From positions 18,793 to 82,792 of the forward strand of contig JBAZMZ010000002.1 of the NCBI GenBank assembly GCA_041649495.1: a stretch of DNA of 64,000 bases, read 5' to 3'. Below the pieces are notes generated by a model. That model had not been told where the DNA came from. It ran no database searches and was given only the letters and a program-made list of their open reading frames with translations. Shown piece after piece: positions 10,499-26,800 of the stretch. Source of the DNA: Minisyncoccota bacterium. Its GTDB lineage: Bacteria; Patescibacteriota; Minisyncoccia; Phycocordibacterales; XYD1-FULL-46-19. Numbering within the stretch: position 1 is the first letter of the stretch; every line of letters begins with the position of its first letter. Both the position numbers and the translations under genes were made by a program.

Positions 10499-11587
10499 AT
10501 GCTATATCAAGAATGGAAAAATCAAATCGGTCTCGAGAAAAAGGTTAGAAACTATCAACACATTGATGGCCGTCTTGATTTAAATAATGAGTTAAACTTT
10601 CTTAGGGTGGTTGACGTCCTTAAAAATATTAAGGGTCATCAGTTTTTACCTTTTATAAAAAAAGATAAAACGGAGATAAGATTTCGTAGAAGTAAAAACA
10701 ATCCAAAGGGAAGAGCCCAAAGAACCAAGAAAGTAAGGCCGATAATGTATGTCTCGCACATAGATGCCCACATTTACAGTTATTACAACTTTGCTCTCAT
10801 GGATAGATATGAACAATATTTAAACGAGATTGGATTGAGCGAAAATGTTATTGCTTATCGGAAAATAGAGATTGCTGGAACCCAAAAGGGTAAGAGTAAT
10901 ATTAATTTTGCCGGAGAGGTTTTTGATTACATAAAAACAAAAGATGAATGCGTGGTTATTACCCATGACATTGAACATTTCTTTGATGAAATAAATCATA
11001 AATTATTGAAAGATAATATCTGCAAAATACAGGGGATTGAAAAATTAGACGAGTCTTTTTACAAAGTATTTAGGTCCCTAACTGCTTACAAATATATTAC
11101 CCATGAAGATTTTTTGAATAAAAAGATCAAGAGAAAGTTGTCTCATGGTAAATATGCAATTTATCAAACTCTAAAAGGCATTGTAGAGGAAAATAGAACA
11201 AATATGGGAATTCCTCAGGGTAGTCCTATTAGTGGCCTACTTGCCAATATTTATTTAGTCAACTTTGATTCTGACATAAAAAAGCTTTTTCCTGATGTAT
11301 TTTATCGTCGATATAGTGACGATCTTGTTTTTGTCTGCAACAAGCTCCAAAAAGATGACCTACTAAAATTCGTAGATAAAAAAATCAAAGAATCCTTACT
11401 GAAGATTAATTCCAAAAAGTCCTTCGTATCTTATTTAAAGAGGGGCGAAAAAGGTATGGTTTGTGAAAAGGTAACAAATGGTTTAGGAGAAAAGCTTGGC
11501 CGAGATTATGTAGATTATCTAGGCTTTGAATTTAGTGGCAATAATATTTTTCTGAGAAAAAACACGATTCAAAAATTAAAGCATTGA
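10499..11587 (+). CDS. reverse transcriptase, stand-alone and unclassified (not the DGR RT); possibly truncated by an in-frame TGA
   Basis: RT motifs GIPQGSPISGLLANIYL and YRRYSDDLVFVC (YxDD), then ..YLGFEF. The ORF ends about 12 aa after motif 7 with no thumb domain and no maturase or endonuclease domains. Confidence 0.85.
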   Translation: MLYQEWKNQIGLEKKVRNYQHIDGRLDLNNELNFLRVVDVLKNIKGHQFLPFIKKDKTEIRFRRSKNNPKGRAQRTKKVRPIMYVSHIDAHIYSYYNFALMDRYEQYLNEIGLSENVIAYRKIEIAGTQKGKSNINFAGEVFDYIKTKDECVVITHDIEHFFDEINHKLLKDNICKIQGIEKLDESFYKVFRSLTAYKYITHEDFLNKKIKRKLSHGKYAIYQTLKGIVEENRTNMGIPQGSPISGLLANIYLVNFDSDIKKLFPDVFYRRYSDDLVFVCNKLQKDDLLKFVDKKIKESLLKINSKKSFVSYLKRGEKGMVCEKVTNGLGEKLGRDYVDYLGFEFSGNNIFLRKNTIQKLKH

Positions 11588-11590
11588 CAA

Positions 11591-11797
11591 ATGGAAAAGA
11601 CTAAAAAACAGTTGTCTAACACCCAACACCAGAAAAGAAGAAAGCTTAAAAAAATCAGAAGAAGGAATAAGGGTAAAACAAACTATTTTGAGAGAACACT
11701 TAAAATAATAAATAATCTCGGGATAAAGAAACAAATATTAAAAGTTACAAAGAAGAGGAATAGTATTAAAAGAGGGATTTTACCACCTCATCCTTAA
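11591..11797 (+). other. basic 68-aa ORF in the same frame as the RT, one codon past its TGA stop; possible displaced thumb/C-terminal tail
   Basis: Frame identity (10499 and 11591 are congruent mod 3). Very basic sequence (KRRKLKKIRRRNKGK..). The RT lacks a thumb-like segment. Confidence 0.35.
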
Positions 11798-13113
11798 ATG
11801 GCAGTTATAATTTTTTGTTTCAAGATAATTTTACTCTTTAGGCATGTCAGCAATTCTCTCTTTTCAATATTTGTCCCATCTCTCAAAATAAACTTGGCAT
11901 AATTTTTGATATCAATTTCGCCGACTTCAATTTTGTCTTTTAATCCAAGGATGACTCTTTGGAATTTCTTGAAACGCTCAACTTCGGTTTTGATTTTTTC
12001 CTTGATACTGATTTCGTTTAGATCTATTTTGTCGAGGAGCAGTTCGAATTGTTTAATCAAATCTTTTTCTTCAATATATCCGCATTTACAGTGGGCATCT
12101 TTGGCCTTAGTACAGCCATAATATACGTAACGATGAACATTGCCATTTTGCTGTTTCTTGAATTTCTCGTCAGCACAAATACCTGATCCGCATAAACCGC
12201 AAGTCATTAATTTGGTAAAAGCGAATTCCTGATTTTCGACTCTTAAAACATTGCTCTTAAGTTGAGCATGGGTTTGATCGAATAATTCTCGAGTGATAAT
12301 TGGCTCGTGTTTGCCTTGATACCAATTTCCACTATTTTTCGGATATTCAAAGGCCCCGTAATAAAAGGGGTTATAGAGAATACGAAAGATATTGCCTAGA
12401 CTTAAATGCTTTTTGCCTGCCGACGTTCTGAAATTTAATTCAAACCGTAACCACATATAAAGTTTCTTTCCACTCCATTTATCATAAGCCACTTTCTCAA
12501 ACACTTGTTTAATAACTGGTGCCCGTTCTGGATCAATAATTGCTTGGCACTTTCGATCCGATCTTTTTTCATTGAGATAGCCCGTCGGTGGAACTCCCGG
12601 TCTTAAACCCATTTCGCACCTAGTCCTTAGGCCACGTTTTACATTAACGCTCTTGTTGTCATTTTCGAGTTTGGCTTGAGAACATAAGATCATTAACAGG
12701 AATTTTTCATTTGGTGAATTTATAAATGTCTGGCCATAAGTTCTGATTTGCAGAAGCAATTTTTGATCCATTAAATCAACAACTGAACCAAGATCGCCAG
12801 CGTTTCTTGAAAGTCTGTCAGGTGCCCAAGTCAAAATTCCATTGAACCGACCCTGCCTAATATCCTCGAGTAATTCCTTAAAAATTGGCCGTTGTCCCGA
12901 GTCCTTAGCTGAATGAGCCTCACGTCTAATATCGACAATTTCTAAATTATCCCTTTCGGCCAATTGGAGCATCTCTTTGACTTGCGAATCGATCGACAAG
13001 ATTTGGCGCTCTTCTGATTCGGTCGACTTGCGTGCATATAGGACATACTTAATCGGCGTTGGTGGGGCAACGATTGATCTATCCATTATTTGACTATCCA
13101 GCTCTATTTTCAT
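11794..13113 (-). CDS. large serine recombinase
   Basis: N-terminal resolvase catalytic domain (YARKSTESEERQ..SIDSQ), recombinase domain, and Cys-rich zinc-ribbon region (CGLCGS..YYGC..CKC). Confidence 0.9.
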   Translation of the reverse strand: MKIELDSQIMDRSIVAPPTPIKYVLYARKSTESEERQILSIDSQVKEMLQLAERDNLEIVDIRREAHSAKDSGQRPIFKELLEDIRQGRFNGILTWAPDRLSRNAGDLGSVVDLMDQKLLLQIRTYGQTFINSPNEKFLLMILCSQAKLENDNKSVNVKRGLRTRCEMGLRPGVPPTGYLNEKRSDRKCQAIIDPERAPVIKQVFEKVAYDKWSGKKLYMWLRFELNFRTSAGKKHLSLGNIFRILYNPFYYGAFEYPKNSGNWYQGKHEPIITRELFDQTHAQLKSNVLRVENQEFAFTKLMTCGLCGSGICADEKFKKQQNGNVHRYVYYGCTKAKDAHCKCGYIEEKDLIKQFELLLDKIDLNEISIKEKIKTEVERFKKFQRVILGLKDKIEVGEIDIKNYAKFILRDGTNIEKRELLTCLKSKIILKQKIITAI

Positions 13114-14119: not shown

Positions 14120-15034
14120 TTGTTTATTATGAAAACTTTTCTTTTTAAAAAAATCCTGTTCGGCATAGGTGTGGTTTTTGTCCTCTTAATATTAATCGGT
14201 ATCATTTTCCCGACCTCTGATTCCGAAATAAGCAAAAGGGAAATTAAAAATGTTGAAGTTGACACTCGAGTGGCAATTTCAAATCTAAAAGAGCAAGAAG
14301 CCGTTGTCCCTAAAGTTCAGAACCTAAGTCCTAAAGTAGAGGCCACAAAAGAAACGGTTGCTCAAGTTAAGATTCCTCCGGCTGTCCCTACCTATACTTA
14401 TTACTCCGTAACGAGCGTTGTTGATGGTGATACTTTGAAAGTAAATATCAATGGAAATACCGAGACACTACGTCTAATTGGTATGGACACCCCAGAAACG
14501 GTTGATCCCCGAAAACCTGTTCAATGTTTTGGGAAAGAAGCTTCAAATAAAGCCAAAGAATTATTAACTGGCAAAAAAGTTCGAATTGAAAAAGATCCAA
14601 CTCAAGGCGAACGAGATAAATATAATCGCTTGCTTGCCTATATCTACCGTGAAGATGGATTATTCTATAACAAATATATGATTGAAATTGGTTATGCCCA
14701 TGAGTACACCTATGGCACTCCCTACAAGTATCAAGCAGAATTTAAAGTGGCTCAGAGGTCTGCTCAGGCTTCATTTGCTGGGTTATGGTCTCCGAATACC
14801 TGCAATGGGGATACAACTTCATCCGCGGGCACAACGACTGTCGCTCCCGTCACTCAGACAACGCAAACGGTGGGCAAGTTTTACACTTCTTCTTATTCAA
14901 CTTCAAAATACTATTACCCAGCAGAATGTGACGATTGGAAAAGTTTAAGTGTAACATACCTTAAATCTTTTGATTCACTCGACGCTCTTCTTTTAGCCTA
15001 TCCTTCAAAAGCTAAAAGTCCTCAGTGTGATTAG
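14120..15034 (+). CDS. membrane-anchored thermonuclease (staphylococcal nuclease-like)
   Basis: N-terminal TM helix then SNase-fold motifs VVDGDTLKV...RLIGMDTPE...YNRLLAYIY and a Thr/Ser-rich C-terminus. Confidence 0.85.
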   Translation: MFIMKTFLFKKILFGIGVVFVLLILIGIIFPTSDSEISKREIKNVEVDTRVAISNLKEQEAVVPKVQNLSPKVEATKETVAQVKIPPAVPTYTYYSVTSVVDGDTLKVNINGNTETLRLIGMDTPETVDPRKPVQCFGKEASNKAKELLTGKKVRIEKDPTQGERDKYNRLLAYIYREDGLFYNKYMIEIGYAHEYTYGTPYKYQAEFKVAQRSAQASFAGLWSPNTCNGDTTSSAGTTTVAPVTQTTQTVGKFYTSSYSTSKYYYPAECDDWKSLSVTYLKSFDSLDALLLAYPSKAKSPQCD

Positions 15035-15062: not shown

Positions 15063-16115
15063 TTATTGTTCACAAAACCAAAATTCATTTCTAATCTTTT
15101 CACTTTGCTTATGAGTATTGGCATGGGATAAAACACCAAGATAAGAGTTAATTGTACCCTTGTAGCAATTGGGAGAGATCAACCCATTTTCATAATTTTT
15201 CTTGGACAGATCTATCTTTCGCCACATTCGCCGCTCGCTTCTTTTTCGCAAACGGCGGTGATAGGGTAAAAGCACGTAGCCAAGGAAATCGGTACCTTGG
15301 AATATTTTACCAATTCCCACCTTTTCCGGATGCAAAGACAGTCCCAGCTCCGTTTTTAAAAATTTAACCATTGGTTTAATTAAGCCGAGCAAATAATCAA
15401 TATTGTCTGATACAACAATAAAATCATCAGTGTATCGAACATAATTTTTAACCCTTAGCTCATGCTTCACGAATTGGTCAAACTCATTCATGTATACGTT
15501 GGCAAAGAGCTGGGAAGTGAGGTTGCCAATCGGGACACCGCGACGATTAAACAAATCTGAATATTCGCTCAAAAAACTTTCAATAATTTCTTCCAAAAGC
15601 CATATGGCGTTTTGGTCCGAGATCCTCCTTTTAATAATCGAAAGAAGAAACGAGTGATTAATGGTATCGAAGAATTTTTTAACGTCGCATTTTAAGGCAA
15701 AGCCGGGACGCGAATAATTATGGCTGACTTGCTGTTGCATTTGCTCCAAAACCGCCACGCCCTTGTGCGTGCCTTTGCCAAAACGGCAAGAAAAAGAACG
15801 CGGAATAAAAGTTGGTCCAAACACCCAATTCAACACTCGAAAAATAGCATGGTGTAAAACGCGATCACGGACCGTCGCCTTATGGATATGTCGCCGTTTG
15901 GGATCGTAAATATAGAAACTGCTATATGGACCATGCTTGTAAGTTCGGCTGGTTAAATCTCGGTGCAATTGAAAGATATTTTGTTCCAGATTCTTTTCGA
16001 AAGCCAATACGTCCGGCTTTTTCTGTTTGCCCCGCTTAAATTCTTCCCACGCCTGAAATAGGTTCTCCAAATTAACAATCTGATCAAATAAATTATTGTA
16101 AACCCTCATAACCAA
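15063..16115 (-). CDS. diversity-generating retroelement reverse transcriptase
   Basis: Close motif-by-motif resemblance to the Bordetella phage bRT: NLFQAWEEFKRGK, HGPYSSF, GKGTHKGV, IGNLTSQLFANVY, RYTDDFIVV, FLGYVL, SHANTH. Confidence 0.9.
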   Translation of the reverse strand: MVMRVYNNLFDQIVNLENLFQAWEEFKRGKQKKPDVLAFEKNLEQNIFQLHRDLTSRTYKHGPYSSFYIYDPKRRHIHKATVRDRVLHHAIFRVLNWVFGPTFIPRSFSCRFGKGTHKGVAVLEQMQQQVSHNYSRPGFALKCDVKKFFDTINHSFLLSIIKRRISDQNAIWLLEEIIESFLSEYSDLFNRRGVPIGNLTSQLFANVYMNEFDQFVKHELRVKNYVRYTDDFIVVSDNIDYLLGLIKPMVKFLKTELGLSLHPEKVGIGKIFQGTDFLGYVLLPYHRRLRKRSERRMWRKIDLSKKNYENGLISPNCYKGTINSYLGVLSHANTHKQSEKIRNEFWFCEQ

Positions 16116-16123
16116 ATAAAAAT

Positions 16124-16477
16124 ATGAATGATAATGATATTCCGATCCTTAAAAAAGCCTACGATCTTTACAAGACCTTTCACGATTATCGCCGAGTGAT
16201 TCCCAAGTGTGACCGCTTCACCATCTTTGAGCGGAGCGAAAATCTGATTTTGCAGATTATCGAACTTTTCCTTGAAGCTGGTTATTCGCAACATGGTAAC
16301 AAAGCGGTGTCGCTGGAAACGGCCAGTACAAAATTAAACCTGCTTCGTTTCCTTATTCGCTTAATGAAAGAAACAAAGAGCTTTGACACCAAGAAATATG
16401 TGGCGGTCCAAGCGATCATCGACGAAATCGGTCGTATGTTAGGTGGCTGGCTCCGTTCGACCAGTCCAACTCGTTAA
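16124..16477 (+). CDS. avd: DGR accessory variability determinant (Avd), on the strand opposite the RT
   Basis: 117-aa helical protein alignable with bAvd (KAYDLYKTFHDYRRVI ~ KCYDQMLIVERYERVI; LLRFLIRLM ~ MLRFWLRFL; IGRMLGGWL ~ VGRILGSWI). Confidence 0.8.
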   Translation: MNDNDIPILKKAYDLYKTFHDYRRVIPKCDRFTIFERSENLILQIIELFLEAGYSQHGNKAVSLETASTKLNLLRFLIRLMKETKSFDTKKYVAVQAIIDEIGRMLGGWLRSTSPTR

Positions 16478-16530
16478 ACTTAAAGAGGTAGCCAAAAAAG
16501 ATTGACTACCTCTTTAATGAGAAGGAGAGA

Positions 16531-16675
16531 CTTCGGGGAAACCATCGGAGGGAACACCGACGCCGAGCCATAGTTGTCGTTGGTATCGTCGACATCGTTC
16601 GTGTCGAACTTGACCTTGTCGCCGTTGAACTTGAAGTAGGGCGCCTTCGAGAAGTCGCCATCGCCATCCGGAGAT
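16531..16675 (-). repeat. DGR template repeat (TR)
   Basis: About 145 bp similar to 17098-17241. Most mismatches fall where this copy has A on the minus strand. The 16480-16773 ORF is its translation artefact. Confidence 0.75.
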
Positions 16676-16980
16676 TTGTTTTTGCCCATCCGTGGCACCA
16701 GAACTCTAAAATGACTCTTGTCGGCAACAAGACACCTTATCGCTCTTGAATTTAATCTGGCAACACCCGCCATATAGGCTTAGTGGTTTACCTTGAACAA
16801 AAACAAGCAGTTTCTCCTCACCACGGCACACTCTTGCAAACAATAGTCGGCAAAACTCTGGCCATTTCTCGTGAGAGAAAGAGTTGGGCGACGGTCATCA
16901 ATAGACGGCCGTACATTAGCTTAGACTCGTTTATAAGTATATCAAATATGTTTTTTATGTAAACGAAAATCAGGGTCACC

Positions 16981-17011
16981 CACACACCTCTGCCCAAGGC
17001 AGACAGGTGTG
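16981..17011 (-). repeat. GC-rich hairpin just downstream of the VR/target gene
   Basis: cacacctctgcc-caa-ggcagacaggtgtg imperfect inverted repeat about 80 bp 3' of the VR (on the minus strand), where DGR homing-enhancing hairpins are described. Confidence 0.5.
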
Positions 17012-17090
17012 GATAACCCTGAAAAAATTGCCGCGAAATCAAAAATCAAGAGAAAGAAATCAAAAGATTCAAGACTTCGAGAGCCGAGGA

Positions 17091-17981
17091 TCACTGTTGC
17101 GGGGAAACCACCGGAGGGAACACCGACGCCGAGCCAGAGTCGTCGCTGGTATCGACGACAACGAGCGTGCCGAACCAGACCTCGTCGTCGTCGAACCCGA
17201 AGCACGGGGACTCCGAGAAGTCGCCACCGCCGCCCGGATTGAATTCGTCGCCCGCGCAGTCGATCCAGAGATCGTCCACGTTTTCGAGGCGTTCCGGATG
17301 GGTCAGGAGCATGATGCCGATTTCGAAAGCTCCCAGACCACACTCACCGCCAAACATGACGACACGTGCCCGACGGACGGACTTGTCACGGTGGCGCAGA
17401 CCGAATTGGGCCGCGATGACGAGCAGGTTGTGTCCGCTTTGCATTTTACTGAGTTCGAGGAAGAATTCCTCCTTCTTGGCGTGCTGGCGCAGGTGTGCTT
17501 CGTCGATCTGGCCGTCGCGGTAGTTGTAAAGCGAACCGCGAACTTCCTTGATCTTGTCGAGCACCACCTGGACCGCTTCGGGGTAGGTCTTGGCGATCAA
17601 CCGCCAGTCCGGAATCAAGAAGCGACCTTCAGCGTTCGGCGGAAGCGCTTCGCCTTCGATCGTGGTGTCGAACGTGGTCTGGGCGAGTTCGGGGAACAGT
17701 TCCTTCAAGCGCGAGGCCTGTTCGGCGAGCGGCTTCGGCTGGCTGTAGCCCGAGAGGTACCCATATTGCGACTCGACTTCTTCGTCGGCGAACTGGTCGG
17801 GGTTCGTGAGCTGTTCGATCAGCACTTTCAAACCCTTCTGGAATTCGCCACCGTTCTCGTTGAGTCTCTGTGCCCGTTCTTCGTCTAAACCCAACTTGTT
17901 GTAGGTTGCACGAAAGAGGTCTACCGCTTGACGTCCCTTGGGATCGTCGGCCGTGATCAATGCTGTCTGTGGCATCGTCAT
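17091..17981 (-). CDS. DGR target (variable) protein; VR at the 3' end (about 17098-17241)
   Basis: The C-terminal roughly 48 codons match the TR with adenine-specific differences. The GC-rich IMH-like end ggctcggcgtcggtgttccctccggtggtttcccc lies at the VR 3' end. Whole-gene GC is well above the genome background. Confidence 0.75.
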   Translation of the reverse strand: MTMPQTALITADDPKGRQAVDLFRATYNKLGLDEERAQRLNENGGEFQKGLKVLIEQLTNPDQFADEEVESQYGYLSGYSQPKPLAEQASRLKELFPELAQTTFDTTIEGEALPPNAEGRFLIPDWRLIAKTYPEAVQVVLDKIKEVRGSLYNYRDGQIDEAHLRQHAKKEEFFLELSKMQSGHNLLVIAAQFGLRHRDKSVRRARVVMFGGECGLGAFEIGIMLLTHPERLENVDDLWIDCAGDEFNPGGGGDFSESPCFGFDDDEVWFGTLVVVDTSDDSGSASVFPPVVSPQQ

Positions 17982-18052
17982 CAGCTCCTTTCCTTGTTGG
18001 TCGTACTACAATTTACCGAAATCCTCGTCGGCGATCAGCTTCTCTCGCATGA

Positions 18053-18103
18053 GATGAGCCATTTATGGCCTAAATTAAGCCCCAAATGGCTCATCTCATT
18101 GCA
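18053..18103. repeat. perfect 16-bp inverted repeat (atgagatgagccattt / aaatggctcatctcat)
   Basis: Seen directly. Lies in the divergent intergenic region between the DGR target gene start and the 18226 gene. Confidence 0.6.
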
Positions 18104-18225
18104 GTGATTCTATTGTCAAAATCTGGGTATATTATATCAGATAGTGTCTGTTTGTCAAGGTCGCGTAATAATCCAATTTGAACAGTTTTTTTATCATAAT
18201 AAAGATCAAACGGTATTCTTAATAA

Positions 18226-18882
18226 ATGAACTTTAGACAGGCGATTAATATTCTAAAAAAGCAATTAAAGGAACAACAACCTCTAACTTTTAGTAGTTCT
18301 TGGATTTACCGTAATACACCAGCGTCTTATCGTTATTTCCGTCTTAATTATCGGACAGAAAATGATCAGATAGATTGGGATAAAGTTACTTATCAGCTAC
18401 CTCGTTCTTTCCAAAAACGCTGGATTCGTTATCGACATAAAACGGCAAAATGTTATGAAAATAAGAAAGAGATTGATTTGGTTCTTAATAAATATCGACG
18501 AAAACTCTATGTCGTAATCACCCCAATAACAGAGGTTGATAAACGACGAAGAGAAAGAATAATTATTGCACTTGTTCGGGTCGCTCAAAAAGGCAACACC
18601 CTAGCGGAGCAAGAACTTTCTCATTGGCTTAGTTACATTATCGACGATTGGGTTGATCGTTATTATGCCCTACGAGTTTGGCGAGGCTATACCGATATAA
18701 TTCAAATGAAAATTGCCGGTTGTATTCGAGGATATCGCTACACTGGCAGTTTTCTTGGTTATCTGTATCGCACGCTTGAGTATGCCGGCCGAGGTCTCTG
18801 CTCACTCCAAAAGTTTTCGTTTGATGATCCGATATTAGATGGGCAAAAAACTCGAATCGATTATTTTATTCATGATCCTTAA
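18226..18882 (+). CDS. hypothetical protein (218 aa), phage-like context
   Basis: ORF adjacent to the terminase genes. No confident motif; weak sigma-factor-like helical segment. Confidence 0.45.
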   Translation: MNFRQAINILKKQLKEQQPLTFSSSWIYRNTPASYRYFRLNYRTENDQIDWDKVTYQLPRSFQKRWIRYRHKTAKCYENKKEIDLVLNKYRRKLYVVITPITEVDKRRRERIIIALVRVAQKGNTLAEQELSHWLSYIIDDWVDRYYALRVWRGYTDIIQMKIAGCIRGYRYTGSFLGYLYRTLEYAGRGLCSLQKFSFDDPILDGQKTRIDYFIHDP

Positions 18883-18884
18883 CC

Positions 18885-20345
18885 TCAAAAGAAAAAAATC
18901 CTTTGGCCACCCGGTCGTTCTTCCATAACACTTAGCACCATGATTGAAAAGGCATCGGCTAGATCGTCGTGCTTTTCCACTCCGAAATTAATAATTTGAT
19001 TAAGGAGTTCTTCACAATTATCCCTTGGAAAGAGGATTTTGCCAGACTTTATCCAGTGAGCTGTCATAACGAGACGACTTCGTTTGTCGCCACAAGGACG
19101 AGATGTCATGATGTTGTAGATGTTTTCGGCTTCAAGTTGTTGTGGCAACGCTCGTTGGTAAGCGACGTCTTCGAAGACAAACTCCGGGATCGTATCATCA
19201 GCGTAATATGACTTGTAAATTGATTTACAAAGTTCGACCGTCTCTGGGAAGGTAATTTTTTTATTAACAATTTTGGGCAAGATATAAATTCGTAGTCCAT
19301 TATCATCTTCGTATGCACAGCCGATCACCATTGCCGTATAATCAGCTGAGTCTTTTTGTGAGATTGCTAAATCCACCCCAATTCGGATACCAAGATAACA
19401 GGAGTATCCGTAGCGTTTTTTCTTCTTTGAGGGTAGTTCGTCGTAATAGTGAATCCAGTCTCGGTGGATGGCCTGCTCTTCAGATGGGACGATGCGAAGC
19501 AGGTATTCTCGTTGCCAGGCATACTCGTTGGCCGATCGCCTTTTCTCTGTCTCAATATCCTCCATTGTCGGATATTTCCCCGGCCAAAGAATTTGGCCGT
19601 TTTGGACTAATGGATATTGTTTAAATACGCCATCTAGTTTTCCGGTCTCAATATTTTCTTTAATCCGCATTAAGAGTGAATCTTCGTGCAGAAGATTACC
19701 AACGATGACAATTCTGGTATCTCGATCACCAGCCGGGACCACCTCAGCTGTTAGCCACTGATATGTTTTATTGCGACTTTCGCGAGTTTTAGTTGAAGAG
19801 AGATCCTCTACGTCGTCACCGATTATTAGATCAGGACGATGTTGGTTGTGTCTTAAACCTCTGATACTTTGCTCGCTTGAGGCAACGGTAATACGAGCAT
19901 TTGAATTGGAGAAAACCAGTGACGAAGTTCCCCATTCATTGGATTCTTCGTTGAATGGTCCGAGGTCGTTTTTCAACACCGTGTTTTCTTCTAACTCTCG
20001 GCGAAGATTCATCATGTGCTGTTTAGCCTGAGCTTGAGTTTGACAGAGAATGAGAACAAATTTTTTCTGTTGTCTACCGAGAATAGCCCAGAGCGGATAG
20101 GAAGTGGTGATAATAGTTGATTTACCACAACCACGAAAAGCAACGACAAAGAAGTTCTTCACCGATTCGTCTTCTGTTAAGCCGATAATTTCTCGCTGGA
20201 AAGTGGCCGTCTGGTATTTAATGTAATGGGCGAAATAAAAATGAAAGAAATACCAGTGACTTTCCTTGGTAATGGAAATTCTAACTTTCTGGTCGCGGAT
20301 CATCGTTTCCGCTAGATCCACTGGGATCACATTTTTCGTTGTCAT
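18885..20345 (-). CDS. phage terminase large subunit
   Basis: Walker A FRGCGKST near the N-terminus, ATPase then RNaseH-like nuclease half with acidic residues (DDLADAF). Size about 486 aa. Confidence 0.85.
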   Translation of the reverse strand: MTTKNVIPVDLAETMIRDQKVRISITKESHWYFFHFYFAHYIKYQTATFQREIIGLTEDESVKNFFVVAFRGCGKSTIITTSYPLWAILGRQQKKFVLILCQTQAQAKQHMMNLRRELEENTVLKNDLGPFNEESNEWGTSSLVFSNSNARITVASSEQSIRGLRHNQHRPDLIIGDDVEDLSSTKTRESRNKTYQWLTAEVVPAGDRDTRIVIVGNLLHEDSLLMRIKENIETGKLDGVFKQYPLVQNGQILWPGKYPTMEDIETEKRRSANEYAWQREYLLRIVPSEEQAIHRDWIHYYDELPSKKKKRYGYSCYLGIRIGVDLAISQKDSADYTAMVIGCAYEDDNGLRIYILPKIVNKKITFPETVELCKSIYKSYYADDTIPEFVFEDVAYQRALPQQLEAENIYNIMTSRPCGDKRSRLVMTAHWIKSGKILFPRDNCEELLNQIINFGVEKHDDLADAFSIMVLSVMEERPGGQRIFFF

Positions 20346-20754
20346 GTTGGTTGTCGTTATCGCTATTAATTTCTGTTGGCTCAGGTATTTGAGCTAGTTT
20401 TAGGGCCTCACGAACAATAGCTTCCTGTTCGGGGGTTAATTCACCGTTGTTTTGGATTTTGGCTGTTACCTCCATCTTATCTTTGAATCTGGTATTACGA
20501 TGTCGTAACCAAAAACTAATTGCGGGGAAATTTCTTTCTTTAATCAGACTCAACAACTGGCTTTCACTCATATCATTAACTAACGCCTCACCCTCGGCTA
20601 AGGCCTCGTTCATTTCTTTCTTAAATTCCTTATCTTTATCGCACCAGCGATACACACTGGTGCGAGAGACATTCATCTTTTCACATGCGACTTGCACAAT
20701 GGGTACTTTTTTCAATTCCTCCAAAAAGGAATTTCTTACTTTAGCTTTTTTCAT
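20281..20754 (-). CDS. HTH protein, probable terminase small subunit
   Basis: N-terminal HTH (VACEKMNVSRTSVYRWC). Overlaps the start of the terminase large subunit gene, an arrangement typical of small/large terminase pairs. Confidence 0.5.
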   Translation of the reverse strand: MKKAKVRNSFLEELKKVPIVQVACEKMNVSRTSVYRWCDKDKEFKKEMNEALAEGEALVNDMSESQLLSLIKERNFPAISFWLRHRNTRFKDKMEVTAKIQNNGELTPEQEAIVREALKLAQIPEPTEINSDNDNQHDNEKCDPSGSSGNDDPRPES

Positions 20755-22021
20755 GGTTAATCTTTGCCTTACGGCCGGTTAATTTCTCATAATGTCGAAT
20801 TGCCAAATCACAAAAAACGGGTTCAAGCTCGACAGCGAAGACTCTTCGCTTGAGTTGCTCGCCTGCAATTAAAGTGCTGGACGACCCGGAGAAGCTATCT
20901 AAAATAATGTCGCCGGGCTTGGTGCAACGGCGAATCGCTTTTTCGTGCAATTTTGGTGGCTTGGAAGTGGCATGTTCATAATCTTTGCCGGATAGTCGTT
21001 TAACCGCCCAGACATCAATATTGTCTAAAGCTTCCTCGACCAGAGCGTTGCCTGTACCGATTTCTTTATTGAGTACCTCATTCAGATTTTTAATCTCCGG
21101 AGCGATATATGGTTTACCCCTAACGCCATAAGTACATGGCTCATAGCATTTATTGAAAGCTACACCCGGAGTCGGGTTCTGACCGTTCTTGAGCCAGAGA
21201 CAAATTCGTTTATTTTCAATTCCTAATTCGCGGTATAAATCTTGAACCAGCCCGACGTATATCTGGTCCGACCAATAGAAAACGTGGGTGTCAGGCTTGG
21301 CAACCATTAGGGCGTTAACCAGACTTTGGCGCAGAAAGTCTCGATATTCGACAAAAGTTCGTTTGTCGTTTACATTACCGCCATAATTTTTCTTGCCACC
21401 GATACCTTGGGAATAATCTAGGTTGATGTTGTAGGGAGGATCTGAGTAGATCATCGAAGCTCTATTGTTGCCAAATAGTCGCCTTAGGATGGCCGGGTCG
21501 CCAGAACTACCACAGATTAAGCGGTGTGGCCCAAGCTCGATTAGGTCGCCTAGCTTTGTCTTAGGTTCTTTAATTTTTTCTAATTCTTTTTCTTCGTCAA
21601 AATCATCATCCTTGGTTTCTAGGTTTTGATCCCAGATTTTGGCTAATTCGTCTTGATTAAATCCGATATCAGTGAGAAGATCTAGGTTAAATGATTTCAA
21701 TTTCTCAAAATCCCAGTCGCCAGTGACGGCATTGGAAGTGATGAGGTATTGATCATATTCCTGTTGTGTTAATTTACGGTTAGGAATTCTGACCTCGATT
21801 AATTCTTCACCTCGACCCAGCACCTGCAGAGCACGAATCCGTTGGTGCCCAGCAACGATTTTGCCATCAATATCCACGGCCGGTAGTTCAACAAGGTTGA
21901 ACTTTCTCAGACTCTTCTTCAAATCGCTCATTTGCTTGTCTGAAATCAAGCGCGGATTTTTAGCATAAGGCAGGAGGTCGTTGACCTTGCGTTTTTGAGT
22001 AGACCAAATTAATTTTTTCAT
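20741..22021 (-). CDS. ParB-like nuclease domain fused to DNA methyltransferase (second copy)
   Basis: Same architecture and motif set as the 7737-9008 gene (ParB-like N-terminus, DPPYNINLDY, FSGSSSTLIAGE). Confidence 0.85.
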   Translation of the reverse strand: MKKLIWSTQKRKVNDLLPYAKNPRLISDKQMSDLKKSLRKFNLVELPAVDIDGKIVAGHQRIRALQVLGRGEELIEVRIPNRKLTQQEYDQYLITSNAVTGDWDFEKLKSFNLDLLTDIGFNQDELAKIWDQNLETKDDDFDEEKELEKIKEPKTKLGDLIELGPHRLICGSSGDPAILRRLFGNNRASMIYSDPPYNINLDYSQGIGGKKNYGGNVNDKRTFVEYRDFLRQSLVNALMVAKPDTHVFYWSDQIYVGLVQDLYRELGIENKRICLWLKNGQNPTPGVAFNKCYEPCTYGVRGKPYIAPEIKNLNEVLNKEIGTGNALVEEALDNIDVWAVKRLSGKDYEHATSKPPKLHEKAIRRCTKPGDIILDSFSGSSSTLIAGEQLKRRVFAVELEPVFCDLAIRHYEKLTGRKAKINHEKS

Positions 22022-22106
22022 GTTTTTTATTTATTAAATTAATAATACTGTAGCATTCTTGAGCTACAGTATTATTGAAACAGGTCGAAAAAATATATCT
22101 GTAATT

Positions 22107-22949
22107 TTACGGGCTACTTTTTTCCAGATTTTTCTTAAATCGTTTTTGTCTTAGTTTTTTAAGCGAGCGTAAAATCTCATCGATTTCTCCTGTCTTAAAT
22201 TTTTTTCCGGTTTCTTCTTGAACAAATTCAATTATCTCTTCTCGACTAATTTTACCTTTGGTGTATTCTACCTCGTCGAAATAATTACGGTTATTATATG
22301 TTTTTTCTAAAACGATTCGTGCATCAATATCTTTAAGAGGATTGATGTTGGGGAGTCGATTCCCTAGGATGTCATTAACGTAATGTTTTATATATCTGAG
22401 GTCTTTCTCTGTAAGTTTTGCATAGATGGACAAAGTTACAGCTCTAGCCTTTAGGTTTTCTGGCGTGCCTGGTCTATTCCCAAATATGGTTACTGGAATC
22501 ATCCAAAAGTCATTTTGGACAATATAGCCCCATATACTGTTCTCACAATTTATTGGCAGATTAAAATCGTTAACAAGTAGTTTTATTTGCCGAGATAGAT
22601 AATTTATAGGTAGAGGGTCGTGGAGTTTATATCTCAAGTCATCATATTCTTTCCGACTGATTTTCTTAGCCTCGTACAAATTATAAAGTCGTCTAAGTTC
22701 TTGATTAAATTCCTTTGAGTTCATCATCTCCTCTGATTTATTACCCATTCCCTTTTCCCATTCTTCAAATTTTTTGCCGAAGTCTGGCGTCTTGGGATCG
22801 AAACCATTTTGGGGTATACCAAGATAGTGACGAATTTCGACGGCACGCCCTATAAAATCTGGGTCCGAGACCGCAAGTTTCAAGTTATCCTTGATTTTCT
22901 GAGAAGAAGGAAGTTGAGAGGGTTTTTGTTTGGGCTTTTCCTTAACCAT
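22107..22949 (-). CDS. hypothetical protein
   Basis: Probable start at MVKEKPKQ (22949); the N-terminal extension back to 23096 is hydrophobic junk. No recognisable motif. Confidence 0.45.
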   Translation of the reverse strand: MVKEKPKQKPSQLPSSQKIKDNLKLAVSDPDFIGRAVEIRHYLGIPQNGFDPKTPDFGKKFEEWEKGMGNKSEEMMNSKEFNQELRRLYNLYEAKKISRKEYDDLRYKLHDPLPINYLSRQIKLLVNDFNLPINCENSIWGYIVQNDFWMIPVTIFGNRPGTPENLKARAVTLSIYAKLTEKDLRYIKHYVNDILGNRLPNINPLKDIDARIVLEKTYNNRNYFDEVEYTKGKISREEIIEFVQEETGKKFKTGEIDEILRSLKKLRQKRFKKNLEKSSP

Positions 22950-23081
22950 GTGAATATTATACTCCCATTTAATTTTTAAAATAAGTCTAAATATGGTATA
23001 ATAAGGGAGATTTTCGCAAAATAAAGCAAAATTTAGCGGAAATATTCCCAAAAAGTTAAAAAATAACGATTTAAAACAAAA

Positions 23082-23327
23082 ATGTCTAATTATCACGTTA
23101 CAAATCCTAAAGGATCGGATATTTGGAAAGTCCTAAAAGAAGGAGCTGGTCGGTCTTCGGCAACAGCTCAAACCCAAAAACAAGCTGAGACTATCGCCAA
23201 ATTATTATCAGCTAATTCGGGTGGTGGCGAAGTCGCTATCCATCGGTCAAACGGTGGACCAATTCGAGACAAAGATACCGTTTGGCCAGGGCACGATCCA
23301 AATCCGCCAAAAGATAATAAACACTAA
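23082..23327 (+). CDS. DUF2188-like small protein; first gene of a tightly packed five-gene operon
   Basis: 81 aa with W..G.RS....TQKQA...AK.L....GGGE..IH..NG.I pattern ending in PPKD. A TATAAT-like box about 80 nt upstream. 2-3 nt gaps to the following genes. Confidence 0.5.
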   Translation: MSNYHVTNPKGSDIWKVLKEGAGRSSATAQTQKQAETIAKLLSANSGGGEVAIHRSNGGPIRDKDTVWPGHDPNPPKDNKH

Positions 23328-23329
23328 AT

Positions 23330-23497
23330 ATGAAATGTGAAAAATGTGATAAAGATATGAGACAGATTGGGCCTTTTGCTCAAACCAAGGCCGAGGGAGA
23401 GCCGGCTGGTAAATGGGATGGGGTTCTGGATTTTCAATGTGTAAATCCTGATTGCGAAAATTACAATAAGATTATAAGAAAAGAGACCCTTGGCTAG
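23330..23497 (+). CDS. zinc-ribbon protein (55 aa), not in the ORF track
   Basis: Direct translation MKCEKCDKDM...FQCVNPDCENYNKII gives two CxxC pairs. Starts 3 nt after the previous stop and ends 2 nt before the next start. Confidence 0.45.
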   Translation: MKCEKCDKDMRQIGPFAQTKAEGEPAGKWDGVLDFQCVNPDCENYNKIIRKETLG

Positions 23498-23499
23498 AT

Positions 23500-23892
23500 A
23501 TGGAGGCAAAATTAAAACATCTAGGATTTATACAGGATACGATTAATCGTATGGCAAAAAATTCCTTCCTGCTAAAGGGCTGGGCGCTGACTGTTATTGG
23601 GGGCTTACTGGCATTGAGCCTGAAAGAAATGATTTGCCAATATCTTTTTATCTCTTTGGCGGCTCTGATTTTCTTTTGGCTGTTGGACAGTTACTATTTG
23701 TGCCAAGAAAAGCTATTTATTAGACTTTATGATAAGACAAGAGACCTACCAGGGGATCAGATAAATTTTTCTATGAATACGGATTCTTTTAAAACGAAAA
23801 CGGGCTGGCTAAAATGTTGTTTTTCAAGAACCATCTCTTTATTTTATGGCGGACTTTTTTTAATGCACTTAATTATAATTTTAATTTCATAA
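23500..23892 (+). CDS. small membrane protein (2-3 TM)
   Basis: Hydrophobic segments. Translationally coupled to its neighbours. Confidence 0.5.
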   Translation: MEAKLKHLGFIQDTINRMAKNSFLLKGWALTVIGGLLALSLKEMICQYLFISLAALIFFWLLDSYYLCQEKLFIRLYDKTRDLPGDQINFSMNTDSFKTKTGWLKCCFSRTISLFYGGLFLMHLIIILIS

Positions 23893-23895
23893 ATT

Positions 23896-24492
23896 ATGGC
23901 AAGAAAAGTATTTTATAGTTTCCATTTTGAGCGAGATTCCCAAAGGGCGGCACAGGTTAGGAATAGCCATTCCCTTGCCGACGAAGACGAATATGGCGTA
24001 GTCGATTCTGTCGAGTGGGAGAAAATTGAACGCCAAGGAAAACAGGCTGTTGAAAATTGGATAAAAGATCAATTGAAATATACCTCGGTTACAGTTGTTC
24101 TTATCGGAGCAGAAACGGCTGACCGAGAGTGGGTTCAGTATGAAATCCGGCAAAGTTGGGATCGTGGTAACGGGTTAGTTGGCGTTAGTATACATAATGT
24201 GAAAAATTTAGATGGAAAGACAGATACCGCCGGTCCAAATCCATTTGAGCGTGTATTGTTAGCGGATGGTTCGCCTGTTTCATCAATTTGTAAAATTTAT
24301 GACTGGGTTACAGAAGACGGTATTGGCAATTTGGGTAAATGGGTTGAAGAGGCCTTCCAGACAAGGGTTAGTTATAAAGGAGAAAAAAATCTTAAGGCTA
24401 ACCATTTGGAAAAAACTAGCACCGATAACTCCTCAAGGTTATCTAGTGGTCCTGTGACTTTGAACAATCCTCCTCAGCCATGGACACCATAG
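23896..24492 (+). CDS. TIR-like domain protein (DUF1863 / ThsB-like)
   Basis: N-terminal RKVFYSFHFERD, later SVTVVLIGAETADREWVQYEI and GLVGVSIHNVKN match the bacterial TIR-like (MTH538/DUF1863) pattern. Confidence 0.5.
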   Translation: MARKVFYSFHFERDSQRAAQVRNSHSLADEDEYGVVDSVEWEKIERQGKQAVENWIKDQLKYTSVTVVLIGAETADREWVQYEIRQSWDRGNGLVGVSIHNVKNLDGKTDTAGPNPFERVLLADGSPVSSICKIYDWVTEDGIGNLGKWVEEAFQTRVSYKGEKNLKANHLEKTSTDNSSRLSSGPVTLNNPPQPWTP

Positions 24493-25211: not shown

Positions 25212-25413
25212 CAGGCAAATGCAACTTTTACCCCTTACCCGTGTCACTTTTGTCACTTTGTGCTAAAATAGGGGTGCTCGAGATGCGTCGATTTGATATT
25301 ATGAATTTTAACCAAAAAACCTTACAGGGTTTGGCCGTGAAAGGTCCGAACTCGAAGTAGCCCGCCAATTTTCACTTGTTAGAGTTGATTAATTAACTCA
25401 TTATTTATTAATT

Positions 25414-25752
25414 ATGCGGATTTGGGATATCTAACCAAAGAATTTATGTCGAAAACATTTACTGGCCGAGCATCGGGAGCTTCATGGTCTCTGGAATATT
25501 TTGACGAAACATCAGGGTCGAGGTGGGTATTCAAAACATCCCGAAACTTTGCGTTGGGTCGGCAAACAAAAGGCGCTTTATGGTCGGCACGAAGCTTTGG
25601 TGAAAGAATTTTCTCGGCGGGGGTATTCTCATCAGACACCCCTTGATAAAAGATTGGCACTTGGAATTGGTCGGCAGAATTGTTTTATCAATACTGTTGG
25701 AGAGCAACGGATAATTCTTAAACAAAAACCTTGCGATTGTCTCCTGTCTTAA
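25414..25752 (+). pseudogene. pyrimidine dimer DNA glycosylase (T4 endonuclease V / DenV family), interrupted by an in-frame TAA
   Basis: ATG at 25414 gives MRIWDI, then TAA at 25432-25434. The same frame continues PKNLCRKHLLAEHRELHGLWNIL...YSKHPETLRW...RRGYSH, matching the family. ORF-track entries 25422 and 25501 are fragments of this gene. Confidence 0.6.
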
Positions 25753-25854
25753 TTTATCCCCACCCGAATCTAGCTAAGTAAGAATTGGAGGTGGTATAAT
25801 TATACTTAGGTCGAAAACTTCGTTTTGTTAATATTAATAACAAAATAATAATCA

Positions 25855-26046: not shown

Positions 26047-26114
26047 TTTTCTGGTTTTGCGAAACAAAGGGTCTTTCGTTTGAAAGGCCTTTTGTTTTTT
26101 GCTATTCTTAAGTC

Positions 26115-26753: not shown

Positions 26754-26800
26754 CTTTTTGGTTACATTGAAAAACTCGCCAAAATTGCTAAAATATAGTT

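Follow-up and report, generated by a model that had tools for sequence, protein, structure and literature searches.

The question raised by this locus, which lies within a 64,000-nucleotide stretch of bacterial DNA (‘the window’), is whether it represents a genuine diversity-generating retroelement (DGR), and whether its two most conspicuous features, an inverted avd gene and a target gene far richer in GC than its surroundings, record local events or belong to a whole class of elements. A large fraction of the DGRs known so far belongs to the Patescibacteria (CPR), and to our knowledge this class has no experimental model. All of the parts of a DGR are present and intact (Table 1), each at nearly the coordinates proposed in an earlier reading of the sequence alone, and we conclude with high confidence that the locus is a genuine CPR DGR of architecture B3 (target - TR - (avd) - RT), situated on a Candidatus Paceibacterota chromosome, within a defence/mobile island (the host being assigned by a 100% identical LigA). 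Taken alone, it is one more DGR of the Patescibacteria; the interesting part is the covarying RNA of the wider family.

Table 1. Features of the DGR locus (positions in the window)
Feature	Position	Strand	Description
DGR reverse transcriptase (RT)	15063-16115	-	350 aa from TTG 16115; Pfam RVT_1 4e-22
avd accessory gene	16124-16477	+	117 aa, head-to-head with RT; Pfam bAvd 66 bits (cut-off 40)
Hairpin 3' of TR	16480-16517	-	Between TR and avd stop codon; 16-nt arms, 94% complementary; z = -5.1
Spacer motif AAGUCUCUCC	16524-16533	-	Immediately 3' of TR; conserved family-wide
TR	16534-16672	-	139 nt, 30 adenines
Structured RNA domain 5' of TR	16675-16928	-	~255 nt; covariation, 32 loci
P1 of 5' domain	16921-16903/16900-16887	-	Helix
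P2 of 5' domain	16864-16845/16842-16824	-	Helix
P3 of 5' domain	16806-16795/16687-16676	-	Helix closing at TR 5' edge
P4 of 5' domain	16791-16785/16767-16760	-	Helix
P5 of 5' domain	16746-16738/16708-16700	-	Helix
GGAGAAACU (family consensus GGAGAUACU)	16809-16817	-	Single-stranded between P2 and P3
Promoter-like site, TR RNA	16936-16963	-	TTTACA-16-TATACT, extended -10 TG; consensus match
Hairpin 3' of target	16970-17022	-	Strong hairpin then T-tract, 70 nt past target stop codon; z = -6.9
CTTGA motif array	17025-17090	-	Core CTTGA[AG]TCTTTTGA; sense strand, stop codon to hairpin
DGR target gene	17091-17981	-	296 aa; GC 0.59, GC3 0.74; VR at 3' end
VR	17100-17238	-	Encodes aa 248-294 of target
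Hairpin, target 5' UTR	18049-18099	-	25 bp; z = -5.3
Promoter-like site, target gene	18131-18158	-	TTGACA-16-TATAAT, 12/12, extended -10; consensus match

The repeat and its adenine signature

The TR and VR form an ungapped direct repeat (offset 566, 83% identical; BLAST E = 5e-31 within the window), and a BLAST search within the window found no third copy. Exact alignment on the minus strand gives 24 mismatches, of which 19 coincide with TR adenines and the other 5 do not, in close agreement with the roughly 20 of about 25 counted previously by hand; with A at 30 of the 139 TR positions, the probability of 19 or more in 24 is 3e-9. The adenine-site changes from TR to VR comprise 13 A>G, four A>T and two A>C. 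All 30 TR adenines occupy codon positions 1 or 2 (P = 5e-6), every one of the 19 adenine changes falls at a non-synonymous position, and three of the five remaining changes are at third codon positions. These differences are the adenine-specific, codon-position-1/2 signature of mutagenic retrohoming; across 42 related loci, 93.4% of 800 TR/VR mismatches likewise lie at TR adenines. The near-identity of the GC-rich 3' ends, previously described as IMH-like, is borne out by a 24-nt stretch without adenine (71% GC) that is identical in the two copies. The homology stops at CCCCG, beyond which the VR continues with CAA and the TR with AAG. A 12-nt 3'-terminal duplication common to TR and VR contains one A-to-G difference, from which it follows that in this lineage sequence transfer has spanned the entire repeat.

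An origin of the repeat by ordinary duplication and divergence (for example of a paralogous gene fragment) beside an unrelated RT has nothing in its favour but the bare presence of a repeat. The adenine bias and codon-position pattern, the resemblance of the RT to bRT, the presence of Avd and the recurrence of the same organisation in ~43 loci (where adenines account for 93% of mismatches) together make such an origin of TR and VR vanishingly improbable, and it was ruled out on the adenine bias here and in related loci.

The best solved relative of the RT is the Bordetella phage enzyme bRT (8ub7_A, E = 5.6e-45, compared with 1.9e-21 for group II intron RTs). The protein carries the catalytic YTDD, together with the DGR motif PIGNLTSQLFANVY, which aligns with PIGSLTSQLFANVY of bRT and follows the pattern [ILV]GxxxSQ (here IGxxxSQ). 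Its true start is probably ATG 16109, giving 348 aa; the gap to the start of avd, previously put at about 8 bp, is 8 nt from the TTG codon and 14 nt from the ATG. The avd product scores 79.4 bits against NCBIfam DivGenRetAVD (0.6 under the cut-off of 80) and matches Avd/Bbp7 in the PDB (4dwl, 1.5e-4).

Architecture, host range and target fold

The arrangement of the TR, the oppositely directed avd and the RT corresponds to architecture B3, defined (in the legend of Figure 5 of Wu et al. 2018, NAR 46:11, PMC5758913) as TR-(avd)-RT with avd reversed and no further accessory gene, and accounting for 90% of CPR DGRs. The sequence-only reading had correctly placed avd on the strand opposite the RT, TR and target, but had called this unusual. 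The two genes stand head-to-head in all of the ~43 related loci that have both, where the TR-(avd)-RT module follows the target or, in inverted form, precedes it; the inverted avd is a trait of the whole class, and not a local event. The published CPR B3 DGRs also share with this locus the same host phylum, component order and strands, a chromosomal rather than viral location and a target without a recognisable sequence domain, and the lack of any architectural difference makes the locus a member.

The family comparison covered about 80 related loci. Relatives of the target number 317 in genomes, almost all named as Patescibacteria, and only 3 among 2.9 million IMG/VR contigs. Judged by host and cellular relatives, the locus probably falls in DGR clade 2 of Roux et al. 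2021 (PMC8144416), which is restricted to Patescibacteria and encoded by cells rather than viruses.

The target ORF is a member of a conserved protein family, with a helical N-terminal region of ~110 residues that has no match, and a conserved scaffold (…DCAGDEF…F.F…V.F…GSAS…). Its C-terminus had been judged not to be an obvious C-type lectin. At the level of sequence that judgement stands: no match was found in Pfam, NCBIfam or PADLOC, nor between the family profile and PDB sequences, and the sequence was not found to belong to the known CLec, FGE-sulfatase or DUF1566 families. At the level of structure it does not, as the AlphaFold model (pLDDT 88) matches C-type-lectin/FGE folds, including those of the DGR variable proteins TvpA, Mtd and TaqVP, and a C-type-lectin fold is predicted for the VR-bearing C-terminus. 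From Mtd (1yu0), TvpA (2y3c), TaqVP (5vf4) and FGE-sulfatase-like domains, to which Pfam, NCBIfam and PDB profile searches detected no sequence similarity, the target differs by its unmatched N-terminal region and its scaffold. The protein is probably a cytoplasmic binding protein.

A GC-rich target as a family trait

The observation that the target is GC-richer than the RT, avd and surrounding genes is confirmed: its GC3 is the highest among the 58 ORFs in the window, against 0.28-0.49 in neighbouring genes and a median of 0.41. The accompanying suggestion, that the target was acquired separately, did not survive comparison with other loci. Such an acquisition would amount to a recent horizontal transfer of a GC-rich target/VR/TR cassette into an AT-rich genome that already held RT and avd, and the strong local contrast is what it would predict. 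However, a like contrast is found in 81 of 81 Patescibacteria loci (0.58 in the target, 0.42 in the flanks), and in the compared loci the GC of RT and avd matches that of the host. The excess begins and ends in sharp steps exactly at the CDS boundaries, target GC follows host GC with a constant offset (r = 0.53), and neither the intergenic DNA between target and TR nor the 5' RNA domain is GC-rich. Since members of the target family share only 45-70% protein identity, their synonymous sites are saturated, and the excess therefore reflects a maintained, gene-specific bias rather than a recent import. Moreover, the one recent exchange that is visible (described below) replaced the TR-avd-RT core and left the target and 10 kb beyond it 100% identical. 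The recent import of a target cassette, largely refuted by the family-wide excess and by this core swap, is very unlikely; the GC-rich target is a trait of the whole class. Transfer hardly explains the excess, which suggests that selection or biased gene conversion acts on DGR targets.

Core exchange and activity

Over 11 kb that include the target, the near-identical strain L002 matches the window at 100% identity, whereas its TR-avd-RT differs by 10-29%. In this, the only recent exchange visible, the core was swapped and the target kept, which corrects the imported-target story (the exchangeable part is the TR-avd-RT core) and is direct evidence of DGR cores being exchanged between closely related strains, leading to mismatched TR/VR pairs. 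The locus was found in at least 4 independent assemblies (source metagenomes 3300037067, 3300035208, ERZ27247363 and SRR6484787), and is therefore not a chimera.

All public assemblies with the gene (at least 6 contigs, from no fewer than 4 samples, L002 among them) carry one version of the VR, and the window's target belongs to a 2-member protein cluster in which the VR is identical. At 4 of the 5 non-adenine mismatch positions the VR has the base found in the diverged L002 TR, suggesting that the TR of the window has drifted after the last homing. The presence in the TR of four AAG codons able to mutate to TAG likewise counts against activity at this locus. It is possible, though less likely than not, that the locus is a structurally intact DGR now inactive or very rarely active, its VR written in the past and since frozen, with its TR drifting and its core replaced by recombination. 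The VR shared by every assembly (even by L002, with its non-cognate TR) and the five non-adenine differences, four of them resembling TR changes made after the last homing, speak for this. Against it, the ORFs and cis elements are all intact, and the assemblies are consensus sequences that hide minority variants and may stem from one population (0-5 nt differences over 18 kb); close relatives, in other clusters of at least 90% identity, are clearly active, being hypervariable at positions confined to the VR. An inactive state is compatible with the assignment of the locus as a genuine B3 DGR, and not exclusive of it.

A structured RNA next to the TR

The TR is preceded by a five-helix domain whose pairing is conserved in an alignment of 32 loci. 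Compensatory changes occur in 38 of its 53 pairs; 96.2% of cells are paired (81.3% when shuffled, 34-54% when the alignment is slid), and both-side changes are found in 294 cells versus 85 in shuffled alignments, with none of 500 shuffles as high. The domain was found in every locus with RT and avd, and no other full-length match was found in the 1.33 Mb searched. The RT-associated motifs RT-1 to RT-19 (of which RT-10 is the BPP-1 spacer; Weinberg et al. 2017, PMC5737381) are likewise conserved structured RNAs adjoining a DGR template and RT, but no Rfam family matches the RNA of this locus: the 5' domain gave no hit, and neither RT-10 nor any other family was matched, even at E <= 10 on a short stretch. 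In the CPR DGR literature examined, no mention was found of an RNA 5' of the TR, of the target GC excess or of cis elements around the target; no description of a conserved folded RNA before the TR was found in the literature, and Paul et al. 2017 may already cover some features of the family.

The region might be independent of the DGR RNA, whether as a riboswitch or regulatory leader, as an sRNA in its own right or as the 5' portion of a gene for a small protein. Some annotation pipelines call ORFs of 69-97 aa in this stretch, the transcript structure is itself deduced from sequence, and BPP-1 requires only 20 nt upstream of its TR. Nevertheless, the domain lies on the TR strand, always 1-11 nt before the TR, in every locus, and is carried along where the TR-(avd)-RT module is inverted; it varies by compensatory base-pairing with many G-U pairs and not in a codon-like manner; the 97-aa ORF (16480-16773), which spans the TR, is merely the open TR frame; and helix P3 closes exactly at the TR boundary. 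An independent element is accordingly regarded as unlikely, and the domain is treated here as part of the DGR RNA.

On the other side of the TR, only ~55 nt precede the avd stop codon, and these hold one conserved motif and one hairpin. The motif is tentatively considered a candidate priming region and the 3' strand of a duplex that would bracket the TR, for which GGAGAAACU is the candidate 5' strand. This pairing (16524-16533/16809-16817) shows modest covariation, with 84% of cells paired and both-side changes in 5 pairs versus 1.3 when shuffled (0 of 500 shuffles as high), and the duplex remains tentative. The stem of the hairpin is kept in 35 loci, with compensatory changes in 11 of 11 pairs. 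Avd-binding stem-loops just 3' of the TR have been described in 207 of 278 DGRs (Handa et al., bioRxiv 10.1101/2023.10.23.563531), and the hairpin is probably both a stem-loop of that type and a bidirectional terminator.

Comparison with BPP-1 and a proposed mechanism

The DGR of BPP-1, for which cryo-EM structures of bRT, Avd and RNA are available (PDB 8ub7 ff.), is ordered mtd-avd-TR-Sp-brt, and its RNA comprises a 140-nt spacer and needs 20 nt upstream of the TR (Handa et al.). The present locus resembles it in its RT family and Avd, in the TR/VR logic, adenine mutagenesis and GC-rich IMH-like end, in the hairpin downstream of the VR and the stem-loop just 3' of the TR, and in a target of C-type-lectin fold (here predicted). 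It differs in that no structured TR-RT spacer of ~140 nt, with priming, stop, RT-binding and Avd-binding elements, was found at the locus, the TR being followed by ~55 nt and preceded by the ~255-nt structured domain. Here TR and RT could share a transcript only if avd were read in antisense; the hairpin near the VR stands ~70 nt away from it (after the CTTGA array) rather than adjacent, and the target is small and probably cytoplasmic instead of being a phage tail fibre.

By analogy with the Bordetella phage DGR, and from the anatomy of the locus, a non-coding RNA of ~450 nt would be transcribed from its own promoter, comprising the 5' domain, the TR, the spacer and a hairpin that would also end the convergent avd transcript. 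The promoters of RT and avd would face away from each other, each embedded in the 5' end of the other gene, and the two proteins would bind this RNA; cDNA synthesis would be primed in the spacer and the TR copied with misincorporation opposite adenines; and the cDNA would replace the VR, rewriting ~20 surface residues of the lectin-fold domain. Because the distance from TR to avd is so much shorter than the BPP-1 spacer, the RT-binding and stop functions of that spacer are proposed to have moved into the 5' domain, with helix P3 and the tentative GGAGAUACU:AGUCUCUCC duplex bracketing the TR. The covarying RNA, fused to its template, offers a concrete construct (~16929 to 16480) for reconstituting a CPR DGR and for testing whether the RNA-controlled priming and stop of the Bordetella phage hold with an inverted avd and a ~55-nt spacer. 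The extension of this model to patescibacterial B3 DGRs in general, as elements with a rearranged RNA (most protein-binding and stop functions residing in the five-helix domain) and a differently marked target, is put forward as a speculative proposal.

Elements around the target gene

Common to the whole family are the structured 5' RNA, the hairpin 3' of the TR and conserved elements on either side of the target gene. The transcription map is predicted from consensus matches only; the start expected from the TR RNA promoter falls on the 5' domain's first conserved nucleotide, and the alignment also shows conservation of the -10 region. Target marking in the class would consist of a 5'-UTR hairpin, a CDS with GC3 ~0.3 above the genome, the sense-strand CTTGA array and a terminator hairpin with a DnaA-box 9-mer in one arm. 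If these features guide cDNA integration, recognition in this class would differ from the IMH-plus-cruciform model and might be coupled to replication; the conserved cis elements around the VR are candidates for target recognition.

The CTTGA array reaches 2.25 copies per 78 nt (background 0.11), with essentially none on the antisense strand, and is absent after the TR. The hairpin that follows is found in 80 loci, a median of 56 nt after the stop codon, and is probably the target's terminator and possibly also a DGR target-recognition hairpin. Its 5' arm contains the DnaA-box 9-mer TTATCCACA (17008-17016), which is exact in 19 of 80 loci and within one mismatch in 35 of 80, against backgrounds of 0.0045 and 0.055 per 170 nt. 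Upstream of the gene, the outer stem of the 5'-UTR hairpin (ATGAGAyGAGC...GCTCrTCTCAT) is kept in the family, and a hairpin with dG <= -20 kcal/mol lies ~50-70 nt before the target start in 46 of 81 loci.

Template, variable repeat and architecture

A repeat finder run over 14.5-18.5 kb returned a sole long direct repeat, whose two copies of 139 nt align without gaps at 83% identity; in a BLAST search against the whole window, the copy at 16.5 kb found the other as its only second copy (E = 5e-31). Read on the minus strand, the copies differ at 24 positions, 19 of which carry adenine in the 16.5-kb copy (13 A>G, 4 A>T and 2 A>C) and five of which do not; given that adenine occupies 30 of the 139 positions, the probability of 19 or more such mismatches is 3e-9. 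In the frame of the 296-aa ORF ending at 17091, all 30 adenines sit at codon positions 1 or 2 (P = 5e-6), as do all 19 of the adenine changes, while three of the five other changes fall at third positions. This combined adenine and codon-position pattern identifies the 16.5-kb copy as the template repeat (TR) and the other as the variable repeat (VR), so that the assignment made in the sequence-only reading stands after exact alignment.

The reverse transcriptase (RT) ORF matches Pfam RVT_1, and its best solved relative is bRT, the RT of the Bordetella phage BPP-1 diversity-generating retroelement (DGR) (8ub7_A, 5.6e-45; group II intron RTs, 1.9e-21), with which it has the diagnostic PIGxLTSQLFANVY segment in common. 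The 117-aa plus-strand ORF matches bAvd above the Pfam threshold, and scores 79.4 bits against the NCBIfam DGR-Avd equivalog (cut-off 80). In all related loci with both genes (about 43), RT and avd lie head-to-head with abutting starts, and the TR lies beyond avd on the strand of the RT. About 11 loci have the TR-(avd)-RT unit upstream of the target gene and in the opposite orientation; in the others it lies downstream, on the target's own strand. The arrangement corresponds exactly to architecture B3 (Wu et al., PMC5758913); the inverted avd, which had been called unusual, is the norm of its class. The window locus is thus a genuine DGR that belongs to the known Patescibacteria B3 class, and its interest lies at the level of the family: a structured RNA, apparently undescribed, that is joined to the template, a GC excess maintained in the target gene, conserved cis elements on the VR side and strain-level swapping of the DGR core.

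A 97-aa ORF across the TR (16480-16773, minus strand) was considered as a gene and rejected, being the open TR frame running into the spacer. Some pipelines call a 69-97-aa gene across the TR in two near-identical loci (L001, 8601-8810; L003, 11209-11502), which is an annotation artefact.

Features of the DGR, its flanking elements and selected genes of the window
Feature	Position	Strand	Remark
Target gene	17091-17981	-	
VR	17100-17238	-	
TR	16534-16672	-	
avd	16124-16477	+	
RT	15063-16115	-	
Promoter-like site, target	18158-18131	-	perfect sigma-70 consensus match
Promoter-like site, TR	16963-16936	-	good consensus match
Promoter-like site, avd	16072-16099	+	weaker consensus match, face-away, inside RT 5' end
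Promoter-like site, RT	16213-16185	-	weaker consensus match, face-away, inside avd 5' end
5'-UTR hairpin of target	18049-18099	-	20-25 bp family-wide, z = -5.3
CTTGA motif array	17025-17090	- (sense)	between stop codon and terminator, family-wide
Terminator hairpin downstream of VR	16970-17022	-	family-wide; DnaA-box-like arm TTATCCACA at 17008-17016
Structured RNA 5' of TR	16928-16675	-	about 255 nt, predicted transcription start to TR
TR-3' hairpin	16480-16517		z = -5.1
DRT2-like RT	10499-11587	+	
Large serine recombinase	11794-13113		
Defence-type gene	14120-15034	+	
Defence-type gene	23500-25211	+	
Defence-type gene	26801-27298	+	
Orn/DAP/Arg decarboxylase	62550-63878	+	GC3 0.67, at the window's end

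The target protein family

A scan of one genome per species yielded 317 relatives of the target protein, and the locus comparison rests on the closest of these; the best 80 of the 317 come nearly all from Patescibacteria MAGs. It is a sizeable family, with 1868 word-indexed matches and 2030 clusters at 50% identity, 1019 of these at E <= 1e-30. No match was found in Pfam, NCBIfam or PADLOC, and the family profile returned nothing among PDB sequences. The alignment displays a fixed scaffold (…HPERL…DDLWIDCAGDEF…F.F…V.F…GSAS…), the variability being limited to the C-terminal ~50 residues. The protein has no N-terminal hydrophobic segment, and is therefore probably cytoplasmic. A role as a phage tail fibre found no support, BFVD giving no structural match and IMG/VR only three relatives. 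A plus-strand ORF of 293 aa (17007-17888) and other antisense ORFs within the target are by-products of its high GC3; it is the minus frame that shows the family alignment, the GC3 pattern and a Shine-Dalgarno (SD) sequence.

Five loci (L012, L014, L068, L071 and L076) are multi-target DGRs, with two target genes of this family in tandem, upstream of a single module of 5' domain (the structured RNA preceding the TR), TR, avd and RT; in these, the true TR was located by the 5'-domain profile, apart from the second target's VR. Another relative, P0003 (320 aa, 68% identical to the target), has a C-terminus (…PPKSLLLIKEV…) that corresponds to the translated 3' spacer and hairpin of the TR, which suggests that VR and TR recombined with loss of the ~420 nt between them, joining the target to the end of the TR.

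GC excess of the target and exchange of the core

The GC contrast described in the sequence-only reading is real: the target has a GC content of 0.59 and a GC3 of 0.74, the highest among the window's 58 ORFs (median 0.41). In 81 of 81 loci the target is richer in GC than its flanks (means 0.581 and 0.418), whereas RT (0.390) and avd (0.392) lie at or slightly below the flanks, and the GC meta-profile steps at the boundaries of the coding sequence, from 0.63 just inside the stop codon to 0.40 just after it. Third positions in the target are occupied by C, G, T and A at 0.40, 0.31, 0.17 and 0.12, as against 0.23, 0.22, 0.30 and 0.26 in flanking ORFs, and in 69 of 80 loci the target has a higher GC3 than any flanking ORF. 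Target GC also follows host GC (r = 0.53). Since family members are only 45-70% identical in protein sequence, their synonymous sites should be at equilibrium, and from a constant offset over host composition we infer a gene-specific force, either selection or biased gene conversion. No mention of this excess was found in Wu et al. (PMC5758913) or Roux et al. (PMC8144416).

Outside the VR, the target showed no depletion specific to adenine of the kind that might be a side-effect of the DGR (coding-strand A 0.24, T 0.20 overall; A3 and T3 both depleted). An assembly chimera was rejected as the source of the GC island, because the same junctions recur in at least four independent assemblies: the exact target protein occurs on at least six contigs from at least four samples, where its neighbours and the inversion of avd are unchanged, and the sequences of L001 and L003 depart from the window's at 0-5 nt over 12-18 kb. 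Apart from the target, only the decarboxylase at the window's end is strongly GC-rich, and the 63-64 kb stretch has a GC content of 0.55.

The contrast had been taken earlier as a sign that the target cassette was acquired separately, a reading that is not supported by an excess present in every locus, nor by the pattern of exchange among strains. One 98-kb ENA contig (L002, k141_297881) is 100% identical to window positions 16960-27981, target gene included, and all 228 of its differences from the window lie in 15079-16960 (RT 123, avd 37, TR 40 and TR leader 26); its TR-avd-RT module is thus 10-29% diverged inside an otherwise identical 11-kb background, with a breakpoint at the TR promoter. 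A further locus, L004, carries a separate patch of 22 differences inside the RT only. From these mosaics it follows that strains exchange the TR-avd-RT core by recombination and keep the target in place, the opposite of separate acquisition of the target.

RNA structure flanking the template

Directly 5' of the TR lies a structured RNA, the 5' domain, which in an alignment of 32 loci comprises 53 pairs in five helices (P1-P5), with compensatory changes in 38 pairs. Its cells are paired in 96.2% of cases, where column shuffles give 81.3% and sliding of the partners gives 34-54%, and cells changed on both sides number 294 versus 85 in shuffles; none of 500 shuffles reaches any of these measures. 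The strand is fixed by many conserved G-U pairs, and P3 is a long-range helix closing 3 nt before the TR. A profile search recovered full-length copies of the domain in all loci that have both RT and avd, their ends lying 1-11 nt before the TR, and none elsewhere in the 1.33 Mb searched. No match was found in Rfam 15, including a search of a short stretch at E <= 10, and the RT-10 motif (Weinberg, PMC5737381) corresponds to the BPP-1 spacer, on the other side of the TR. This fusion of a structured RNA to the template is apparently undescribed.

The motif CCGAAGUCUCUCC occurs on the 3' side of the TR in all loci, and after it comes a 10-16-bp hairpin between A-runs and U-runs, with compensatory changes in 11 of 11 consensus pairs. 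Because it lies between the convergent TR and avd transcripts, this hairpin probably terminates both. It also matches in position, just downstream of the TR, the Avd-binding stem-loop predicted in 207 of 278 DGRs (Handa et al., bioRxiv 10.1101/2023.10.23.563531).

Between P2 and P3 lies a conserved single-stranded stretch, GGAGAUACU, that may form a duplex with AGUCUCUCC immediately 3' of the TR (the GGAGAAACU:AGUCUCUCC pair) and so bracket the template. This tentative duplex, whose pairing is derived from the consensus, is paired in 84% of cells, with five pairs changed on both sides versus 1.3 in shuffles (0 of 500 as high), and it resembles the upstream:downstream ‘cPRT Stop’ duplex of BPP-1 (Handa et al., bioRxiv 10.1101/2023.10.23.563531). 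The BPP-1 RNA requires 20 nt upstream of the TR and a 140-nt spacer (same study), whereas only ~55 nt follow the TR here; on that difference, much of the spacer's role would have moved upstream of the TR in this class.

A second duplex, between the 5' domain's most conserved single-stranded stretch CGCCGAAC and the TR 3' end GUUCGGCG, looked perfect in the consensus and was rejected, because on the TR side synonymous third positions are free to vary and no compensation is seen. A start of cDNA synthesis at a duplex of this type is also opposed by the 3' ends of TR and VR (16534-16546 and 17100-17112), which carry a 12-nt tandem duplication (the target protein ends in …FPPVVSPQQ, the family in …F(L)PQ). 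The duplication is common only to the closest relatives (P0003 and P0005). The window's TR and VR both have it, with one A>G difference between them inside it; this shows that sequence was transferred over the whole repeat to its 3' end in the window's lineage, and argues for a cDNA start 3' of the duplication.

Elements around the target

The outer stem of the target's 5'-UTR hairpin (ATGAGAyGAGC…GCTCrTCTCAT) is conserved, lying ~50-70 nt upstream of the target start in related loci, and may act as an operator, stabilise the mRNA or control translation. Downstream of the stop codon, CTTGA reaches 2.25 per 78 nt versus a background of 0.11, and a strong hairpin with T-tract lies at a median of 56 nt after the stop. 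The latter folds on the sense strand only (G-U wobbles), and its 5' arm is often GGGTTATCCACA, containing a DnaA-box 9-mer that is exact in 19 of 80 loci (background 0.0045 per 170 nt) and within one mismatch in 35 of 80 (background 0.055); the loci being homologous, these target-side counts measure conservation and not independent origin. As none of the three elements follows the TR, one could speculate that they distinguish recipient from donor.

Activity

The true TR/VR pairs of 42 related loci have 800 mismatches, of which 747 (93.4%) fall at TR adenines, and in two clusters of relatives at >=90% identity the members differ massively at ~20 specific VR positions and hardly elsewhere. By these comparisons of sequence, the DGR class is active in nature. 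At the window's own locus no such variation was seen: its cluster consists of two members that are one sequence with different start calls, and the VR is the same in every assembly. The TR of L002 mismatches the VR at 25 non-adenine positions and lacks the 12-nt duplication, and is therefore non-cognate; it agrees with the VR at four of the five non-adenine mismatches of the window TR, which suggests that the latter has changed since the last homing event.

Genomic setting

Asparagine synthase, type IV pilus genes, NAD-ligase and a tRNA mark the window as cellular, and a Candidatus Paceibacterota MAG encodes a protein 100% identical to its LigA. A mobile/defence island at ~7-29 kb contains the DGR, together with a large terminase, ParB-methyltransferases, a serine recombinase, a DRT2-like RT, PDC-M50 (TIR), E2-like and Panacea-domain proteins and a PIF1 helicase. 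Within 10 kb of DGRs of this class (L008-L079), ParB-methyltransferase homologs occur in 18 other loci, a serine recombinase in 14 and a large terminase in five. DGRs of this class may often be carried on integrative, phage-like elements of Patescibacteria genomes.

The DRT2-like RT, a second RT outside the DGR, scores 336 bits against PADLOC Drt2 and 309 bits against NCBIfam Drt2 (below the cut-off of 390), and adjoins the large serine recombinase. The island's further defence-type genes are named as PDC-M50 A and B (ThsB-like TIR), an E2-like protein and a SocA/Panacea-domain protein. Also among them, directly downstream of the DGR's RT, is a secreted-type SNase (PADLOC SNc+LTD), homologs of which adjoin the DGR in L023 and L044 too.
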